From Candidatus Sigynarchaeum calidifontis (GTDB lineage: Archaea; Asgardarchaeota; Lokiarchaeia; Sigyniarchaeales; Sigyniarchaeaceae), in the NCBI GenBank assembly GCA_030587475.2, contig JAUQYZ020000123.1, positions 1-13,598 of the forward strand: a stretch of DNA of 13,598 nt, read 5' to 3'. Each line of letters starts with the position of its first letter. Position 1 is the stretch's first letter. The notes under the pieces were generated by a model. That model was not told where the DNA came from. It made no database searches and saw only the letters and a program-made list of their open reading frames with translations. Positions 2,371 to 13,598 of the stretch are shown piece by piece. The translations under genes were made by a program, and so were the position numbers.

Positions 2371-3921
2371 CTACGCGTTCTTGCGTTTCTGTTCCAAAGG
2401 CAAAACGAACGTGAACTTGCTGCCCTTGTACCGGCCTTCAGATTCGACCCAGATTCGCCCGCCGTGCCGCTCAATTATCTCCTTGGTGATGAACAAACCG
2501 AGACCGGTTCCTTGAATGTCCAAGTCCAACTTCACCCCTTCGCGATTGATCTTGCCGAAGCGGGTGAACAGCTTCTCCTTCTCCTCGTTCGTGATGCCCA
2601 CGCCGTTGTCGATAACAGATGTCGTGATTTCCTTGGAAAGATCGTCCTTGGAAACATGCACCTCGATTCGACCCCCTGGTTGCGTGTTCTTTATGGCATT
2701 GGTGATCAAGTTCGTGAGCACTTGCTCGATGCGCGCCGTGTCGAAAGGAAAAACGAGCGATGGGGGCGCCGTGATTACGAGGTTCTGGTTTCGGGATTCC
2801 AACAAGTATTCCTGTTCTTTTACAACTCTATTGAGGACCATGACGAAATCATCATCTTTAGAAACGAGCTCGATCTTGCCGGTCTGGATCTGTGATATAT
2901 CGAGCAATGAATTCACGAGAGATTTGAGCCGGGTCGCGCCTCGATTGATCATCTCGACGAACTTGAGTTCATCGCTACCGAGTGACGCCTTGTAATTCGT
3001 AAGCAAGAATTCTACCGCGCCACACATGGAAACGAGTGGTGTCTTGAGCTCGTGAGATGTCACGGCAATGAAATTGTTCTTTAGCTCGTCGATTTCCTTT
3101 AGCTTGGCAATTTCATCCTCCAAAATCTTTTCAGCCTGCTTTTGCTTGGTTATATCATCCAAGATCACGCCGGCGCGATCATTAAGCATGAAGAATACCT
3201 GAATCTTATAGGCTTTTTCTATGGCACCATTCTCCTTTACGTGGAGATTTTCGAAGGTGAACGGCTTTCCGCTCTGGCTTCCCTCCACGACTTGCCTCAT
3301 GATATTCTTCTCGTCCTCGTGTTTCCAGAAATCCATCAACGGGATACCTTGAAGCTGAGCGAGGCTTTTTCCAGCTAGCTTTTCCGCAGCGGGATTACAA
3401 TCGAGAACCGTGAGCTTGCCTCCTCTCTTGATTTTACAAATGAAAATGGCCGAAGGAATGGCCCGCAATATCTCTATCGATGATTTCGATGAATCCCAAA
3501 GCTTTTCCAGGCTTTCCCAGTATAGCGACTCCGCCGGTAGTGCTTGATTGCTCACGTCGATGATGAACGCGGGCCAATATCCAGGAATCCCATCGACGTG
3601 CAAATAAAACGCCTTGATTTTCACGATCCGGCGATCCATCGCCTCTATCTCGAGCTTGGCCTCCCTCGCTTCACCGCTTTGGCTTTCCTGGCAAACCGAT
3701 TCCACGAAGCCATTGATATTCTTTTTGGAGGGCAGCGCGCTGGTAAGCAGCGCTCCCACATTCTTCCCTAAAAGGTTTTCCTCCCCGAGTATTTTACCCG
3801 CGACAGCATTGGCGTATTGGATGGTACCAGAATAGTCGGTCACGACGAAGCCCAGGTCCAGAGCTAAAAAAGCTCGTTCCCATACCTGGCTGCTGGATTT
3901 TGAATCCTTGAAAATCTCCAT
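2371..3921 (-). CDS. Cytoplasmic PAS-PAS sensor histidine kinase (HisKA + HATPase_c)
   Basis: H box SHELKTPL, N box QVLTNLITNAIK, G1 DNGVGI, F box LFTRF, G2 GTGLGLFI. Two PAS-like starts (GFVVTDYSGTIQYANAVA; AIFICK...VLDCNPAAEKL) and a PAC end DITKQKQAE. No TM helix seen. Confidence 0.93.
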   Translation of the reverse strand: MEIFKDSKSSSQVWERAFLALDLGFVVTDYSGTIQYANAVAGKILGEENLLGKNVGALLTSALPSKKNINGFVESVCQESQSGEAREAKLEIEAMDRRIVKIKAFYLHVDGIPGYWPAFIIDVSNQALPAESLYWESLEKLWDSSKSSIEILRAIPSAIFICKIKRGGKLTVLDCNPAAEKLAGKSLAQLQGIPLMDFWKHEDEKNIMRQVVEGSQSGKPFTFENLHVKENGAIEKAYKIQVFFMLNDRAGVILDDITKQKQAEKILEDEIAKLKEIDELKNNFIAVTSHELKTPLVSMCGAVEFLLTNYKASLGSDELKFVEMINRGATRLKSLVNSLLDISQIQTGKIELVSKDDDFVMVLNRVVKEQEYLLESRNQNLVITAPPSLVFPFDTARIEQVLTNLITNAIKNTQPGGRIEVHVSKDDLSKEITTSVIDNGVGITNEEKEKLFTRFGKINREGVKLDLDIQGTGLGLFITKEIIERHGGRIWVESEGRYKGSKFTFVLPLEQKRKNA

Positions 3922-4021: not shown

Positions 4022-5827
4022 ATGATGCGAAAAAAGCGCCGATTCGGGCTGCAAGTATGCATCGCGTGCTTGTTGGTGTTCTTGATGCATCTTGGACCGG
4101 GTATTTTCTTTCATACATCTTTCGTCGATTTACACGGGAACGATCGGCAAGGTATCGGAACTATAGCGATCGTTCCATCCGATGGCACGCATAATTTTAC
4201 CGTGGTCGATATCCGCAACCACCATTTTTCGCTGGCGGAGCGTTACTTACTTGCATCCATCGATGGACTCGTGAACAAGAATGGTTCGAACTTGTTCATC
4301 ATAGAAAGTTTTATCGACGAGTTTTGGTTCAATTACATCAACGGCAGCGGACTGTATTCTGGCCAGCTCCTTCCATTCACAAGCGTGCTCGATTTGGTCG
4401 ATCATTTCAAGGAATATTTCGAGGGCATCATCATCTTCGACAAGAACGATCCGGACCAGGCGAACATGGCCACGCCGCTATGCGGTGCAAACAAGTCGCT
4501 GCTCGTCGACCACGATATTTACAACGCGGTCAAGGCCGTGTTCGATGCGCCAGTGACCTACAACATGACCAAGATCGTCTCGGATAATGCCCTGACTACC
4601 CGCACGGCAAAATATGCATATGCCTTCGACAATTTCTATCCAATTTCGAATCAGTCGGCGCTCGCGTATTTCGCGGAGGATGCCCCACACCACGCCCGTA
4701 GTTTCTACATCGCCAACAACATCTTCACGTTATGGCGCGTGCTATACGTGCACTCGGCCCCTGACGCGGGGGACAAGGATCCAGATCCCCAAGACCAGCT
4801 CGATCTCGTCGCGCGCATCCTGGACGAGACGCCCATCAATATCCCGGTGTATGGCTATCCGTGGCCAGACGGTAGCAACGAGGGCGCTGCGGTGACCCAG
4901 ATCTCCCGCCGCGGAAAGTATGTAATCGCCAACGATTGGGCATTCAACTTGCCATTCCTTGCGAACATGCGACTTCCCCAGGACTACAGGTTTTCACAAC
5001 CGCGGTGTGATTGCATTTTTTTTCCAGAAAACAAGATCTACGTCGCCGGTCTCTGGTCGGACGGGGACAACATCCAATACGTGTTCAACTTCATGAAGTT
5101 CACGCTCTGGGACAATCGCATGGCCGGTCACGTGCCGACCGGCTGGACGATCTCGCCGTCGTGTTACGATCTGATGCCGTGGGTGATGAAATGGTTCTAC
5201 GAGAACAGCACGCCTTACGATTATTTCGTCGCTGCCCTGTCCGGGAAAGGGTACATGTACCCGCGAGAAATGACCGATGCCATGCTCCAAGCGTACTACG
5301 CCGACGTGCGTCCCTTGCTCGATCTCACGGATTTGCACGAGTTGCACACGATGAACATCGGGGACAAGGCCGGGACGGTCGCCGGCCTCCTCGGCAACAA
5401 GGTAAACGTCATCTTCGACGGCTACGGGGGTAATCGCTACGAGTTTCCCGAGTTACACCACGGCACGCCCGTCCTCCATTCACTCTACCTCACACTCCAG
5501 CCGAACAACACGGAGGAGCAGTTCCGCAACGTGGTCAATTTAAAGACCGTCGCGGCCACCCAGCCCGTTTTCGTGTTTTTCAACATCCACTGCTGGAGCG
5601 GGAGCAGCGATCCGCTGTTCTGGAACAAGTTCGCCGCCCGATTGCAAGCTGCCGGGGTGGAAGTTGTCCGGCCAGACGTGCTCGCCCAGCTCGCGAGGCG
5701 GGCGAATATCGGGGCGGCGTTCAACGTGGTTCCGGCCAACGTGATGCTCGCGTTGACCTTAAGCACGACCGTTGTAGCCCTCGCCATCGAGATCCTCCGC
5801 GTTCGCAAGGATCGATCAGTGCTATAG
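4022..5827 (+). CDS. GxGYxYP-family putative glycoside hydrolase, secreted and C-terminally membrane-anchored
   Basis: Signature SGKGYMYP, plus SDGDNIQY and PTGWTISP typical of the family's C-terminal domain, and ASIDGLVNK in the N-terminal domain. Basic-hydrophobic N-terminus (RKKRRFGLQVCIACLLVFLM) and a C-terminal TM with basic tail (VMLALTLSTTVVALAIEILRVRK). Confidence 0.85.
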   Translation: MMRKKRRFGLQVCIACLLVFLMHLGPGIFFHTSFVDLHGNDRQGIGTIAIVPSDGTHNFTVVDIRNHHFSLAERYLLASIDGLVNKNGSNLFIIESFIDEFWFNYINGSGLYSGQLLPFTSVLDLVDHFKEYFEGIIIFDKNDPDQANMATPLCGANKSLLVDHDIYNAVKAVFDAPVTYNMTKIVSDNALTTRTAKYAYAFDNFYPISNQSALAYFAEDAPHHARSFYIANNIFTLWRVLYVHSAPDAGDKDPDPQDQLDLVARILDETPINIPVYGYPWPDGSNEGAAVTQISRRGKYVIANDWAFNLPFLANMRLPQDYRFSQPRCDCIFFPENKIYVAGLWSDGDNIQYVFNFMKFTLWDNRMAGHVPTGWTISPSCYDLMPWVMKWFYENSTPYDYFVAALSGKGYMYPREMTDAMLQAYYADVRPLLDLTDLHELHTMNIGDKAGTVAGLLGNKVNVIFDGYGGNRYEFPELHHGTPVLHSLYLTLQPNNTEEQFRNVVNLKTVAATQPVFVFFNIHCWSGSSDPLFWNKFAARLQAAGVEVVRPDVLAQLARRANIGAAFNVVPANVMLALTLSTTVVALAIEILRVRKDRSVL

Positions 5828-5878: not shown

Positions 5879-8677
5879 TCAAGGATGCCCTTGATCTTTC
5901 TCGGCGGGCATTTTTTCGTGCTTTTTTTCGGTCTTGTTGATGGTGAACCCGAGCGTGAGGATCTCTTGTTGCCTAGCAAAAAAAGAGACCGAGTTTTCCT
6001 TCTCGATAACGAGCTTGGACACGTGGCGTTCGAGCAAATCGAGCAGCCACGCTTCCTTCAGCGGATATGCAATTGAAATCGATCCCGTCAAAGGTGTGGT
6101 GGATGTGGATAGCACCCGGATGACGATCTCCTCGGGATTTTCCTCGGAGCGCTTGATCGCAGTAATGACGAGTTGTTCTGGCTCGACCGTGATGAAACCG
6201 GCCGCGCGGGGAAGGGCTTCGCCTTTTATATCCCGTCCAGGCGATTGCACCGCGACGAGCGGCACGTTGAACCCGAGGGCTTCTGTCGGGATGCGAGCCT
6301 GGATCGGGTCGCCGTCATGGAAGATCAGCGAGTACCGGAACTCGTGGCTGCCTATCTCGAAGGCTTCTGGAATGCTGTAGAACGGGCCTAGCAGCAGCGG
6401 CACATTACCTGCTGCAAGGGTGCCGACGTAACCGGTGCTGCGTAGCAGCGTTAGGAACATCATCGTCTTGTCCTCGCTTATCTCTTGTTCCGGCAAGCCG
6501 ATGTTCATTATCGTCATTCCCTTGCATTCCTCCGCGCTGGAAACATCAATCCAGTTGATAGCCGGGAAGATCCGGTCGTAATGCGCGAAGCGCTTGTTCT
6601 TATAGCTCCAGGCATTTCCTTTCTGCGGGGTCGGATCCCGCTCGATATGCCCGAACGGGATCTCCGTGCGAAACACGGGCTGCTTAACGGGCACGGGAAA
6701 GCAAGCCTGGATTCGCACGTTGCGCGCACGGTTCTCTATACGCGTGATGAAATCGATCCGGGGCGGGCCATGGTGGTTCAATATCACGTACTGGGTCACG
6801 TCATTGACCGGTTTGAAAAAGAGCTTGTTCTTGCACTGCAGCTTCGACGAGATGCGAATGACCACGCGAACCGGACCATCCTCCACCACAACGAGTTTAT
6901 TCCCGAACGTCGTAAATACTTTCTTTGGCATCGTGCCTTCGAGGTAACTGTCTCCACGGTCGTTGAAGATGCGCAGCTCGTTAATGGCTTGTCGCTTCCC
7001 GTCGGCGAGCAAGGCCCCCGCCTTGTCCTTGATCGATCTTAATTTTCCAGCTTCGAAAACGAGCGTGAAATGCAATCCATTGACCTCGACCGTTTCACCT
7101 TTCACGGAGACGCTGTTTCCCGCTAGGCCATTAGCCGGCCTGGCCTTCTGGTCGATGTTCGCGGCCCGCGTGATCGTGTAGGTCGCATATCCTGCGGGGG
7201 GAACAGCGTTGCAAGCCATCACGTGCACGTGCTCGTCTGTCGAAATGCAATCTTTCTGGAACGGCAGCTGCTTACCTGTCTCATCGAGAATCGAGTCCAA
7301 TCTTGCATCGCCCAATAACTTGAAGGTTACGATCCCGTCCCTCGTCGCGGCGATCGCGTTGAAAACGAAGATCGATTCCTTACCATTCAAGGGCCCAAGG
7401 GTCGTTATCGAGTTTGCAAGGGTGTCCAGCGCGGATGTATAGATCTTGTTGAGCTGCATCGTGGATAACTTGAGTTGTTTCATGACGTGCACGAATGCGG
7501 CATCAACGCAGCAGCCCGGAAGGGCATCGTGGAAGCAGCAGCGGAGCAAGCGCCAGGTGGCCTTCTTGATTTCTCGTGCAGGGTAAGGAAAACCAGACCG
7601 TGTCGACGCGATTGTCGACGTGACCTCGGCTAGATACAAGGCGTTTTCGCAAGCCCGGACGGCCTGCTTCACGCGGACGCGCGTGCTGAACGTGCCCGTG
7701 AACTTGTCCATGAAGCCAGACATCTCGCACGGGCCAATGCTGGTCAGCTGGCGGCCACTCTCCCGGATCGCCTGGAAAAAGTCACGGGGAAGGGCGACGT
7801 GGACGCGGAGCTGCTTGTGCTTGTGGTTCAAGTATTCCACCGCGTCGAGCACGTTGGAACTCGGTGGCAAGTTGTCCGTCCCGCACAGGATGAAGACGTT
7901 CGGCGTTGCTGCTTGCGCGGCACGTCGCTTGATCGTGAAGGTGAGGCCGCCGATGTCGCTGCCGATCAGCGCGGCCCCGGCGTTGATGCACGCGATCCGC
8001 TGGAACAAGTATTTGATCGGTGGTAGCACGCTCTTCAAGATTTCGTGCACCTTGAAGGCTTGCGGGATAAGCGCGATAGTGAACGGGATGGGGGCGAACG
8101 GGTAGACCGGGGCGAGGATGGTGCCCGTGTATGGCGGGAGAACGAAGGCATAGTTGATGCGCATCCAGTGCGTGAGTACACTCGTGCCGTCCAGCGCCAT
8201 CCAGTAAAATTCTTGTGGGATATTCCTGCGGATGGCCCCTCGCACGAAGATAAACTGCTCCAGGCCGGCCTTCGCGAGGAGCTGGGGAAACTGCGCAGTT
8301 ATACCGAAGGAATCGATCAAGAATCCCGTCTTCGGCTCGACGCCGAACTGTTCCTTGAAATAACGCATGCCGTGCAAGAACTGGCGGGCAAGGGTCTCCC
8401 CCCTTGCCAGGAGCGTGTCCGGGGCGACGACCATGCCCCCCATGAGCTCGATTCGGTTCTCGGCGACCCGCTGCACGAGTTCAGCCATCATGTCCGGGTA
8501 GTGGAGCTTGAAGTACTCGACCGCCATGGCCGAGTCAATGATATATTTATAGCCGGGATACTTGCGCATGAGGAGGAGGGCTTCCTTGATGAGCTTGGCG
8601 TTCTTTGCGCCCATGGCGTCGGGTGGATCGCACCAGAGATAGTCGTAGTGGCTATGTGGGGTCAAAAAAACGTCCAA
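5879..8677 (-). CDS. GH38 alpha-mannosidase (start uncertain)
   Basis: N-terminal PHSHYD (Zn-binding HxD), GFLIDSFG (nucleophile Asp), EFYWMALDGTSV, GTDN, FHDALPG (Zn His), middle and C-terminal beta domains (EIPFGHIER, LTLLRS, ITAIKRSE). The only in-frame start is TTG 8677. No signal peptide. Confidence 0.92.
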   Translation of the reverse strand: MDVFLTPHSHYDYLWCDPPDAMGAKNAKLIKEALLLMRKYPGYKYIIDSAMAVEYFKLHYPDMMAELVQRVAENRIELMGGMVVAPDTLLARGETLARQFLHGMRYFKEQFGVEPKTGFLIDSFGITAQFPQLLAKAGLEQFIFVRGAIRRNIPQEFYWMALDGTSVLTHWMRINYAFVLPPYTGTILAPVYPFAPIPFTIALIPQAFKVHEILKSVLPPIKYLFQRIACINAGAALIGSDIGGLTFTIKRRAAQAATPNVFILCGTDNLPPSSNVLDAVEYLNHKHKQLRVHVALPRDFFQAIRESGRQLTSIGPCEMSGFMDKFTGTFSTRVRVKQAVRACENALYLAEVTSTIASTRSGFPYPAREIKKATWRLLRCCFHDALPGCCVDAAFVHVMKQLKLSTMQLNKIYTSALDTLANSITTLGPLNGKESIFVFNAIAATRDGIVTFKLLGDARLDSILDETGKQLPFQKDCISTDEHVHVMACNAVPPAGYATYTITRAANIDQKARPANGLAGNSVSVKGETVEVNGLHFTLVFEAGKLRSIKDKAGALLADGKRQAINELRIFNDRGDSYLEGTMPKKVFTTFGNKLVVVEDGPVRVVIRISSKLQCKNKLFFKPVNDVTQYVILNHHGPPRIDFITRIENRARNVRIQACFPVPVKQPVFRTEIPFGHIERDPTPQKGNAWSYKNKRFAHYDRIFPAINWIDVSSAEECKGMTIMNIGLPEQEISEDKTMMFLTLLRSTGYVGTLAAGNVPLLLGPFYSIPEAFEIGSHEFRYSLIFHDGDPIQARIPTEALGFNVPLVAVQSPGRDIKGEALPRAAGFITVEPEQLVITAIKRSEENPEEIVIRVLSTSTTPLTGSISIAYPLKEAWLLDLLERHVSKLVIEKENSVSFFARQQEILTLGFTINKTEKKHEKMPAEKDQGHP

Positions 8678-12104: not shown

Positions 12105-13136
12105 TCACGCGAGGGACTTGAATATCTTCGCGGCGAGGTCGGTGAATGCCTGGTCCACGTGCTCGCCCGTGAGCGCTGACGTGAGAAGCACGTCGCAGCC
12201 CAGTTCCTTGGCGAGGGCCTGGATGTCGTCGTCAGGAACAACCCGCTTGTCCTTGAGATCAAGCTTGTTCCCGAGGATGTAACAAGGCATCTTGCCGATG
12301 GCAGAGATGGCATCGTTGTACCATGCCTTGACGTTCTTGAAGGTTTCCAGGTTCGTGAGGTCGAAGGCCACGATGATGCCACGAGCACCATTATAGAAGC
12401 CCTTCCTGAACGTGTTGAACTTGGCCTGTCCTGCTATGTCCCACAAGACCAGCTTGGCCTTTTTCTTGCTCGCGAAAGTAACCTCCTTCTCGGTCAAGTT
12501 CGTGCCGATCGTGGGGAGATATGTCTGGCGAAAGGCATGATCGGTGTACCGGAGGATGAGCGAGGTCTTCCCGACGCTCGGATCGCCGATGACGATGATC
12601 TTGAAGGCGTACTCGGCATCCCTCGACTTGCCAGTGACTTGTGACTCGTCGGGGAACGCGACATCGCCCCGTTGGCCGAGCTCTTGCGAGCGCAGCTCCT
12701 CGATCCGGCGGGTCATGGCGCCGTGGAAGGCAGCGAGGAGCGCGGGTTCCACGGGCTGCTTGCTCTCCTCCCGCTGGGCGATCCTTTTCGCGTATTCGTC
12801 GAAAATCGGCTGGAAATCGGGGAGATACTTGTAAATCACAGCGTCGCCCTCCTCGCCGATGACGAGGGAGAGCGTGGATTCGCCTTGATGGCCACGAGAC
12901 GCGTGATCCCGGTACTTGATGCAGCGGACGACGATCTTCGCCGAGCCGTCGGGCACCGGGATGATGGCGACCTTTTCCGGCACCTCGTCTGCGCCGAACG
13001 AGATGTTCATGGACGCGATGGCCGCCTTTTCAAGGAGCTCCTTTGGCGACGCCAGCGGGTGCCAGCACGCGGGAACGGGGCCGGCACGCTGGTCAAACTT
13101 CGAATACAAGACGGAGATGAGGACGGTCGAGCTCAT
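12105..13136 (-). CDS. Rab-like small GTPase fused to an N-terminal uDENN/longin-like domain
   Basis: C-terminal domain has G1 GDPSVGKT (12564-12587), G2 YLPTIG, G3 WDIAGQ, FYNGA, G4 GNKLD and G5 TSAL. The N-terminal ~150 aa begin VLYSKFDQRAGPVPACWHP, the F-D/H-x3-G-P-x6-P start typical of uDENN/NPRL2-like longin domains. Start placed at ATG 13136 (343 aa). No C-terminal prenylation Cys. Confidence 0.9.
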   Translation of the reverse strand: MSSTVLISVLYSKFDQRAGPVPACWHPLASPKELLEKAAIASMNISFGADEVPEKVAIIPVPDGSAKIVVRCIKYRDHASRGHQGESTLSLVIGEEGDAVIYKYLPDFQPIFDEYAKRIAQREESKQPVEPALLAAFHGAMTRRIEELRSQELGQRGDVAFPDESQVTGKSRDAEYAFKIIVIGDPSVGKTSLILRYTDHAFRQTYLPTIGTNLTEKEVTFASKKKAKLVLWDIAGQAKFNTFRKGFYNGARGIIVAFDLTNLETFKNVKAWYNDAISAIGKMPCYILGNKLDLKDKRVVPDDDIQALAKELGCDVLLTSALTGEHVDQAFTDLAAKIFKSLA

Positions 13137-13274
13137 AGGGGGTACCGCTGGCGGGCTGTTATCTAATGCAAGCTCGTCGTGGAAGGTAATGAATTTTCGC
13201 AACGTCGCTCGTGGCGAACGACCCCATGTGAAGTTTTTAGGCGTGCGTTATCCAGAGCTCTGTAGGATTACCGA

Positions 13275-13292
13275 TCGGGGATTGGTCCCCGA
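13275..13292. promoter_or_regulatory. Perfect 7-bp hairpin / inverted repeat in the divergent intergenic region
   Basis: TCGGGGA-ttgg-TCCCCGA, 17 nt before ATG 13310. Confidence 0.3.
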
Positions 13293-13309
13293 CGAGGCCC
13301 ATCGAGAAA

Positions 13310-13598
13310 ATGTCCCGAACCAACTGTCCCGTCTGCGGGAGACAGCCGAACCCTCCAAAAAGCGAGCTGGAACGGCACTGGTACACGTGCATGGCTTGCG
13401 AACGCGTGTTTTGCACTAATTGCGGGTCTCCAGGGTTCTGTTCCAGGTGTTCAAGCCAGCTCGACGCCAGCCAGCGCCAGCACGTGCGCACGCGCGGCTA
13501 CCGCGCCTTCCACTTGAACAAGGCGAGGACACCGCTCGTGGTCGTCGGGATCGTCGTCTTGATGTTCGGATTGCTCCTCTTTCTCGTTTATTGGAAGA
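13310..13598 (+). CDS. 8-Cys FYVE-like double zinc-finger protein with a TM helix (3'-truncated by the window edge; absent from the ORF track)
   Basis: Hand translation from ATG 13310: MSRTNCPVCGRQPNPPKSELERHWYTCMACERVFCTNCGSPGFCSRCSSQLDASQRQHVRTRGYRAFHLNKARTPLVVVGIVVLMFGLLLFLVYWK, open to the end. Pattern C-x2-C-x17-C-x2-C-x4-C-x2-C-x5-C-x2-C followed by a 20-aa hydrophobic helix. Confidence 0.8.
   Translation, partial: MSRTNCPVCGRQPNPPKSELERHWYTCMACERVFCTNCGSPGFCSRCSSQLDASQRQHVRTRGYRAFHLNKARTPLVVVGIVVLMFGLLLFLVYWK

Follow-up and report, generated by a model that had tools for sequence, protein, structure and literature searches.

FYVE-type zinc fingers are counted among the membrane-traffic tools of eukaryotes. 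The fingers of the FYVE_2 effectors and the Rubicon RH domain are of the FYVE type and do not bind PI3P, and the rabphilin-type effectors (1zbd, 2zet) grip Rab mainly by long helices that flank the finger on both sides. The ER protein protrudin pairs a membrane hairpin with an atypical FYVE finger lacking the canonical PI3P motifs, and zinc-binding anti-sigma factors of bacteria consist of a finger followed by transmembrane (TM) helices. Among archaeal zinc-finger proteins, Brz is a haloarchaeal CPxCG protein that regulates transcription (PMC2253796). CdpC, a Haloferax zinc-finger protein with two separate single-zinc ribbons (C3H and C4), serves as a membrane anchor for FtsZ1 (bioRxiv 10.64898/2026.07.16.738847). 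The question at stake here is by which route Asgard small GTPases without lipid anchors get to membranes. FYVE and Asgard did not occur together in any title or abstract in the searchable literature, and in one paper naming both, FYVE is mentioned for eukaryotic Vps27 only.

Gene and sequence features

The window, the whole stretch of 13,598 nucleotides analysed here, is an entire contig (G000:C5, last base 13598) of a 5.0-Mb, 89%-complete assembly. An ORF, P0001, has no stop because the assembly breaks at 13598, in agreement with the earlier note on this DNA, which had described the frame as stopless. Translation recovered the elements reported in the same note, namely the four CxxC pairs, the basic segment and the TM helix. 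The note had also given a distance of 173 bp to the start of a divergent GTPase gene, which follows from ATGs at 13310 and 13136. The features of the ORF are as follows.

13310..13597, + strand: P0001 zinc-finger/TM ORF, 3'-truncated, 96 codons, stopless (from translation and homologues)
13310..13462, + strand: P0001 finger, residues 1-51, eight ligands and two predicted zinc sites; best structural matches FYVE/FYVE_2
13463..13525, + strand: P0001 juxtamembrane helical segment, residues 52-72, rich in Arg, Lys and His
13526..13597, + strand: first, possibly only, TM helix of P0001, residues 73-96, cut by the contig end

The ATG at 13310 is the earliest ATG, GTG or TTG in frame past the upstream stop, and homologues also start 5-6 residues ahead of the first cysteine. 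Translation places the cysteines at residues 6/9, 27/30, 35/38 and 44/47, giving the spacing C-x2-C-x17-C-x2-C-x4-C-x2-C-x5-C-x2-C; the core motif quoted in the earlier note corresponds to residues 22-38. The first knuckle reads CPVCG, the archaeal CPxCG signature. Seven basic residues lie between residues 55 and 72, and beyond them the fragment is hydrophobic from about residue 73 to residue 95, near its end. When all six frames of the window were scanned for CxxC-x(3-6)-CxxC, the sole other instance was found at 5307-5345, in a frame interrupted by stops. Because an alignment of 30 relatives shows seven invariant Cys columns and an eighth column of C or H, and because there is a close homologue, P0001 is, judged from its sequence, a genuine gene and beyond chance.

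The missing 3' end was sought in two places. No other contig of the genome overlaps the contig end, and public sequencing runs, in which 4% of sampled words were present, did not yield it. The remainder of the contig encodes a DDE transposase (68-1414), a PAS histidine kinase (2371-3921), a putative glycoside hydrolase of the GxGYxYP family (4022-5827) and a GH38 alpha-mannosidase (5879-8677), none of which is related to the finger gene.

Predicted fold of the finger

AlphaFold2 models, resting on a family alignment of 27-30 sequences, were obtained for the whole P0001 fragment (pLDDT 85.8) and for the finger alone (pLDDT 73.1), with the same secondary structure in both. The model has strands at residues 24-26 and 33-35, a helix beginning at the last Cys pair, and a helix spanning 53-95 that runs unbroken from the juxtamembrane region into the TM segment. 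A wide VIA search with the whole fragment was set aside because this long helix swamped the matches, and the finger was therefore modelled and searched alone. Against 48,161 PDB chains, the best 13 VIA matches were all FYVE or FYVE-related (Z 4.0-5.5), and in Foldseek searches of the PDB, FYVE and PHD fingers came first without reaching significance (E 0.28-1); scores of this size (Z < 8, Foldseek E of at least 0.28) fall where small zinc fingers generically match one another. The VIA matches were melanophilin with Rab27B (2zet, Z 5.5), RIM2 (2cjs, 5.0), ZFYVE19 (5.0), endofin (4.8), RUFY1 (4.8), protrudin (4.7), Rubicon RH (4.6), CARP2 (4.5), EEA1 (4.4), Hrs (4.3), ALFY (4.2), rabphilin (4.1) and Slp4 (4.0). 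Other finger types entered lower, PHD from Z 3.7, RING from 2.7 (5d1k) and C1 from 2.6, and there was no B-box among the 50 matches listed. Alignments to FYVE chains (Z 4.3-4.8) covered 47-50 residues with an rmsd of 2.0-2.4 A and 23-28% identity.

The absolute scores are low because the finger has only about 50 residues, but the ranking is clean, with the FYVE-type chains all first. Re-scoring of the Foldseek candidates with VIA-align likewise placed eleven FYVE or FYVE-related chains (Z 5.6-3.4) above the first PHD finger, and the Foldseek TM-scores normalised by query were 0.62-0.64 for rabphilin, Vps27 and endofin, with endofin highest at 0.64. P0001 also resembles FYVE fingers in its eight ligands, which are grouped into four CxxC pairs around a C-x2-C-x4-C-x2-C centre. 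The finger is thus predicted to adopt a cross-braced FYVE-type fold.

Sequence models gave weaker signals. At E <= 1 P0001 had no match to Pfam FYVE (PF01363), which was matched by 4 of 27 family members at E values of at least 0.0084, the best score being 23.8 bits against a gathering cut-off of 27.8. FYVE_2 (PF02318) was matched by 4/27 members, all below cut-off, and on sequence grounds P0001 is not a member of either Pfam family. Double zinc ribbon (DZR, PF12773) was matched by 5/27 (E of at least 0.0013, all below the 27.3-bit cut-off), whereas the predicted P0001 models appear to superpose on cross-braced fingers. Matches to B-box models were the ANCHR-like B-box in five of the 27 members (best E 0.0062), zf-B_box, weakly, in two, and a weak profile match to MID1 B-box1 (E 0.06-0.15). 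A profile search against the PDB returned the eL43 zinc ribbon as its best match (E 0.0037), with no sequence model reaching cut-off.

The three motifs of canonical PI3P-binding FYVE domains are missing. WxxD is absent from the family consensus and from P0001, in which only MSRTN precedes the first Cys. R(R/K)HHCR is absent as well; P0001 reads E-R-H-W-Y-T-C-M-A-C, and the family consensus before the third Cys is N-[YF]-[IV]-x, hydrophobic and not basic. In place of RVC before the seventh Cys, P0001 has G-F-C and the family G-[FLI]-C. Because all three are absent, we read the model as a fold of the FYVE type that lacks the PI3P pocket. The description of the finger as FYVE-like in the earlier note therefore stands as far as the predicted models are concerned, which match FYVE and FYVE_2 chains best, and is qualified by modest structural scores and by sequence models below cut-off. 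Its caution that PI3P binding is not implied was well placed and now extends to RVC and to the family. On the predicted models the best structural matches are FYVE and FYVE_2 chains in VIA, and FYVE and PHD fingers in Foldseek.

Homologues, distribution and architecture

The closest homologue, P0003 (NMC04783.1), is a 110-aa 'hypothetical protein' on a 5.5-kb contig of a Candidatus Lokiarchaeota MAG. It is 39% identical to P0001 over 95 residues (pairwise E 1e-26) and was found at E 9e-18 by an exhaustive phmmer search of 1.8 billion representatives with P0001, which otherwise gave a few remote homologues. A word-indexed protein search returned six matches, all 'hypothetical protein', as is every public name found for the family, and a search of the ESM Atlas yielded leads only. 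No loci related to that of P0003 were present in the metagenome or genome contigs searched.

Six-frame searches of related genomes uncovered a far larger and fast-diverging family. P0001 alone as query matches a contig of a related genome (G017:C215) at E 7.7e-8, and it scores E 5e-32 and 8.8e-22 against family profiles A1 and A3, both of which were built with P0001 included. Members typically have 130-165 residues, with an N-terminal finger of seven Cys and one [C/H], then a helix in which an L-x4-[QK] pattern is conserved, usually a pair of TM helices, and a short basic tail; P0003 has a single TM helix. The ligand spacing is C-x2-C-x9-20-C-x2-C-x4-C-x2-C-x5-C-x2-[CH], and across the 30 aligned relatives the eighth ligand is mostly His, being Cys in P0001.

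The family is present in 32/161 genomes of the class (profile search, E <= 1e-5) and in 46/400 genomes of the phylum (E <= 1e-6). It is concentrated in three taxon families, f1 (3/3), f2 (12/14) and f3 (1/1), and patchy in a fourth, f4 (15-17/135). Copies number up to 13 per genome, and the family is multi-copy in the Lokiarchaeia-type Asgard order to which the window belongs; the window's own genome has further copies on contigs C256, C59 and C7. Three paralogous family genes lie in tandem in one genome (L006:1008-2453, G025:C14), and a 295-aa protein of another (L005:1357-2244, G001:C180) is internally duplicated, with two complete finger-2TM cassettes; both are signs of rapid local amplification. 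In the family tree P0001 pairs solely with P0003 (98% support). As 48 of the 79 inner branches are open, only this pair and a trio from the GTPase cluster described below were used.

The finger+2TM cassette also occurs in fusions, behind a TPR protein of about 950 residues (1104 aa in all) and ahead of a multi-TM alpha/beta-hydrolase. In a 480-aa protein (L070:1295-2734, G031:C1) it stands behind a complete shikimate kinase domain (Pfam SKI, 4e-43), an arrangement that reads, from its sequence, as a membrane-tethered shikimate kinase. Fusion to unrelated domains fits a general tethering or docking cassette. Pfam, NCBIfam and PADLOC held no model above threshold for the family, only sub-threshold matches, among them those of one member to the models of the HVO_0758 zinc-finger micro-proteins (Pfam E 0.0025, NCBIfam E 9e-4). 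Neither the family libraries nor the literature open to searching contain a description of the family.

Relationship to the neighbouring GTPase

The gene divergent from P0001, and the spacer between the two, are as follows.

12105..13136, - strand: P0002, N-terminally extended Ras-family GTPase; head-to-head neighbour of the finger gene, listed as context
13137..13309, no strand: divergent spacer of 173 bp (from sequence and same-genus alignment)

P0002 starts with the ATG at 13136 and matches Pfam Ras at 1.9e-44 over residues 179-339. Its C-terminus reads ...KSLA, so that the earlier note was right to say that this GTPase has no prenylation Cys. From this the note had gone on to propose that the finger protein could serve P0002 as membrane receptor or effector, and had suggested synteny with longin-type GTPase genes as a check.

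Synteny is not conserved. A genome of the same genus, G001, encodes an orthologue of P0002 at 83% identity, and its DNA aligns with the window through the GTPase coding region and about 70 bp upstream (about 13137-13202), after which there is no similarity; the gene upstream of the orthologue is an unrelated one on the other strand, encoding a 129-aa protein with four TM helices. The abrupt loss of similarity past the ~70-bp block marks a rearrangement breakpoint between the two genomes. Within the conserved block a TATA-like TTAGATAA lies ~25-30 nt ahead of the P0002 ATG, and from this distance a leaderless or short-leader P0002 transcript is suggested. A second TATA-like element, TTTTTA at 13234-13239 in the finger-proximal half of the spacer, is not conserved. 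Both elements are read as putative promoter parts from the letters alone.

We asked if family genes elsewhere lie near Ras-family genes. The other 92 family loci were fetched with up to 6 kb on each side and scanned for Ras genes, and enrichment was judged across 89 of them against an expectation taken from each genome's own density (29-80 Ras genes per genome), with the following result.

Ras gene within 1.5 kb of a family gene: observed 6, expected 3.2, P 0.10
Ras gene within 2.5 kb of a family gene: observed 8, expected 4.5, P 0.08
Ras gene within 5 kb of a family gene: observed 10, expected 7.1, P 0.17

Across the 89 loci the enrichment was not significant at any distance; the modest excess (8 vs 4.5 within 2.5 kb) would allow for GTPase links of some paralogs. 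Within the window's own taxon family, no Ras gene lies within 5 kb of any of the 11 other family loci. Four complete, single-contig relatives carry 23 family loci at a median of 48 kb from the nearest Ras-family match, with one locus within 5 kb against 1.8 expected. A candidate second head-to-head pair of finger and GTPase (G014:C5) was rejected, as the protein is a 4-Cys ribbon with two TM helices; it was excluded as a pairing example, yet kept among the 89 loci and in the observed counts for f4. Presence and absence of the two gene types do not track each other either: among 21 genomes, nine have both full-length GTPase relatives and the finger family, five the GTPase type only, five the finger only and two neither.

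With about 51 Ras-family genes in the 5-Mb genome of the window and a few paralogs of the finger, the single adjacency of P0001 and P0002 is unremarkable, and in genomes with about 50 Ras-family genes adjacency to a GTPase is weak evidence. Because the neighbour differs in G001, Ras genes are not enriched and the phyletic patterns do not match, we conclude that a partnership of P0001 with the GTPase is unsupported and that the P0002 gene is most likely only a neighbour.

A distinct subfamily in a GTPase cluster

Another branch of the family does recur beside Ras genes. Neighbour clustering identified a conserved cluster in the order, consisting of a Ras GTPase, thioredoxin, a V4R/DUF2507-like protein, a finger-2TM protein, a Ras GTPase and TBP. 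Examples are L141:4572-8071 (G067:C4), L150 and L091, with thioredoxins of 95-99 aa. The finger gene stands directly after the V4R-like gene and before the Ras gene in seven genomes of six genera (G049, G051, G060, G061, G063, G064 and G067). The V4R-like protein has 159 aa and matches Pfam below threshold; it is matched in 140/154 genomes of the order, as a single copy in nearly all that match, and in 0/4 genomes of the window's taxon family by that query. Among 30 loci around the best V4R-like matches, a finger was found in that of G067 itself only, 28 lacked it, and that of G073 gave a weak partial match. The finger is thus an accessory part of the V4R-like cluster. The G073 match (L166:905-1099, G073:C257; E 0.0012, profile positions 3-37) lies where G067 has an intact finger-2TM gene and, to judge by sequence and position, may be a decayed copy or remnant.

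The fingers of this cluster group together in the tree with 87% support, and P0001 falls outside, on another branch. The cluster subfamily and P0001 share the same architecture, but P0001 differs from it in branch and in having a GTPase neighbour of another type. A further arrangement is seen in genus g4, in which a finger-2TM gene is convergent with a gene for a 346-352-aa Ras-family protein (L080:790-1830, G007:C75; L082, G011:C1), the 3' ends of the two genes overlapping in G007. In BLASTP the g4 protein aligned with P0002 over the GTPase domain alone, and not over the N-terminal extension.

Proposed role and alternative explanations

We suggest that P0001, a member of an unnamed family, is a membrane-tethered docking module with a predicted FYVE-fold finger, and that the neighbouring GTPase is probably only a neighbour, a reading to which we give a probability of about 0.6. 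The ORF is the 5' part of a genuine gene for a small membrane protein. Its N-terminal finger, on the cytoplasmic side, would bind two zinc ions through eight ligands in a cross-braced, FYVE-type arrangement, and the basic helix after the finger would pass directly into the TM helix. Most relatives would have their short basic tail returned to the cytoplasm by a second such helix. The finger is predicted to face the cytoplasm because of the positive-inside signal and because its cysteines must be reduced. There it would most likely keep a protein partner from the cytoplasm docked on the membrane. The paralog family of P0001 is fast-evolving and expanded in the window's order. We infer a docking function because the protein is already anchored by a TM helix, has neither a lipid pocket nor catalytic residues, and uses a cassette that recurs in fusions, and because CdpC provides a precedent; docking is what one assumes by default when a conserved finger has no residues for catalysis or lipid binding. 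Beyond the ligands little of the surface is conserved, so that it points to no particular binding site.

That the divergent longin-type GTPase, having no lipid anchor, is recruited by the finger as its receptor or effector at the membrane, in the manner of rabphilin or melanophilin, is in our view unlikely. The idea draws on the head-to-head genes with their 173-bp spacer, on the absence of a C-terminal Cys in the GTPase, on several top structural matches being Rab-binding FYVE-type proteins (2zet, 2cjs, 6wcw, 1zbd), on the other subfamily between V4R-like and Ras genes in seven genomes of six genera, and on the two g4 genomes with a family copy converging on an N-extended Ras gene. It is opposed by the G001 orthologue (83% identity), which has an unrelated 4-TM gene past the ~70 bp, and by the locus counts: 0/11 within 5 kb in the own taxon family, 6 against 3.2 expected within 1.5 kb overall, and 1/23 against 1.8 expected within 5 kb in complete genomes. 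Moreover, 5/21 genomes have the GTPase type only and 5/21 the finger only, P0001 lies outside the GTPase-cluster subfamily, and it lacks an N-terminal helix, whereas in rabphilin-type effectors it is the flanking helices that hold Rab. The broader version, in which the family is the Asgard counterpart, by descent or convergence, of the FYVE-type Rab effectors, with paralogs capturing prenylation-less GTPases and P0001 serving P0002, we regard as very unlikely. A membrane-tethered regulator, whose finger sequesters a transcription factor or nucleic acid like bacterial anti-sigma factors or haloarchaeal CPxCG regulators, is distinctly unlikely: the CPVCG first knuckle, the HVO_0758 matches of one member, the finger-then-TM layout reminiscent of anti-sigma factors and the precedent of Brz among haloarchaeal CPxCG proteins (PMC2253796) speak for it, but the HVO_0758 matches are weak and far below cut-offs, no conserved regulator-encoding neighbour was seen in 44 loci, and the structural matches are to FYVE and PHD fingers and not to the anti-sigma zinc-binding fold.

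The remaining two readings we consider highly improbable, each to the same degree. As a reader of lipid headgroups the finger would bind a specific membrane lipid, like FYVE or C1 domains, and mark or organise a membrane patch. The predicted FYVE-type fold, weak C1 and FYVE Pfam matches in several members and the basic helix adjoining the membrane are consistent with this, but WxxD, R(R/K)HHCR and RVC are absent, the consensus before the third Cys is hydrophobic, and, since P0001 already has a TM anchor, a lipid-binding finger would be needless for targeting. A finger of the RING or B-box kind would make P0001 a membrane-bound, E3-like adaptor of a ubiquitin-type modification system. The ligand spacing of B-box type 1 is similar to that of the finger family, and there are weak matches to IBR, the ANCHR-like B-box, RING and MID1 B-box1; all of these sequence matches are sub-threshold, however, the first RING stands at Z 2.7 (5d1k), well under FYVE, no B-box is among the matches listed, and no ubiquitin-system genes were seen adjoining family members. 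The value of P0001 is mainly in defining the family, for which Pfam and NCBIfam have no model; P0001 itself is truncated, and little can be learnt from its neighbourhood. With a membrane-fixed FYVE-fold finger, multiplied to about a dozen copies in genomes of the Lokiarchaeia type, the Asgard inventory would gain a candidate docking module.

Comparison with known systems

The FYVE domains of EEA1 (1joc), endofin (3t7l), RUFY1 (2yw8), Hrs (1dvp) and Vps27 (1vfy) have eight ligands in four CxxC pairs, as does P0001, and share with its model a pair of short strands and, C-terminally, a helix beginning at the last pair. They differ in carrying WxxD, R(R/K)HHCR and RVC, none of which is found in P0001. 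The loop between the third and fourth Cys pairs has 5 residues in P0001, as opposed to ~16 in EEA1. Unlike the eukaryotic FYVE domains, the P0001 finger precedes a TM anchor in the chain, and its host is an archaeon.

The FYVE_2 Rab effectors (melanophilin 2zet, rabphilin-3A 1zbd, Slp4 5x6t and RIM2 2cjs) and Rubicon RH (6wcw) are among the top structural matches of P0001. The effectors have flanking helices, whereas P0001 has no N-terminal helix, because its finger begins at residue 6, and its only long helix (53-95) enters the membrane. Protrudin (ZFYVE27, 1x4u) combines a membrane hairpin with a FYVE-type finger, as the finger-TM family does, and its finger matches that of P0001 at Z 4.7. 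It is much larger than P0001, however, carries its FYVE finger at the C-terminal end and includes Rab-binding, FFAT and coiled-coil parts; P0001 and protrudin showed no detected relationship in sequence.

Among archaeal proteins, those of the CPxCG type (the Brz, HVO_0758 and HVO_2753 families) resemble P0001 in being small and in having CPxCG-type knuckles. These proteins and CdpC are soluble or bound through an amphipathic helix, whereas P0001 has a TM segment, and CdpC carries two single-zinc ribbons where P0001 has one eight-ligand finger.
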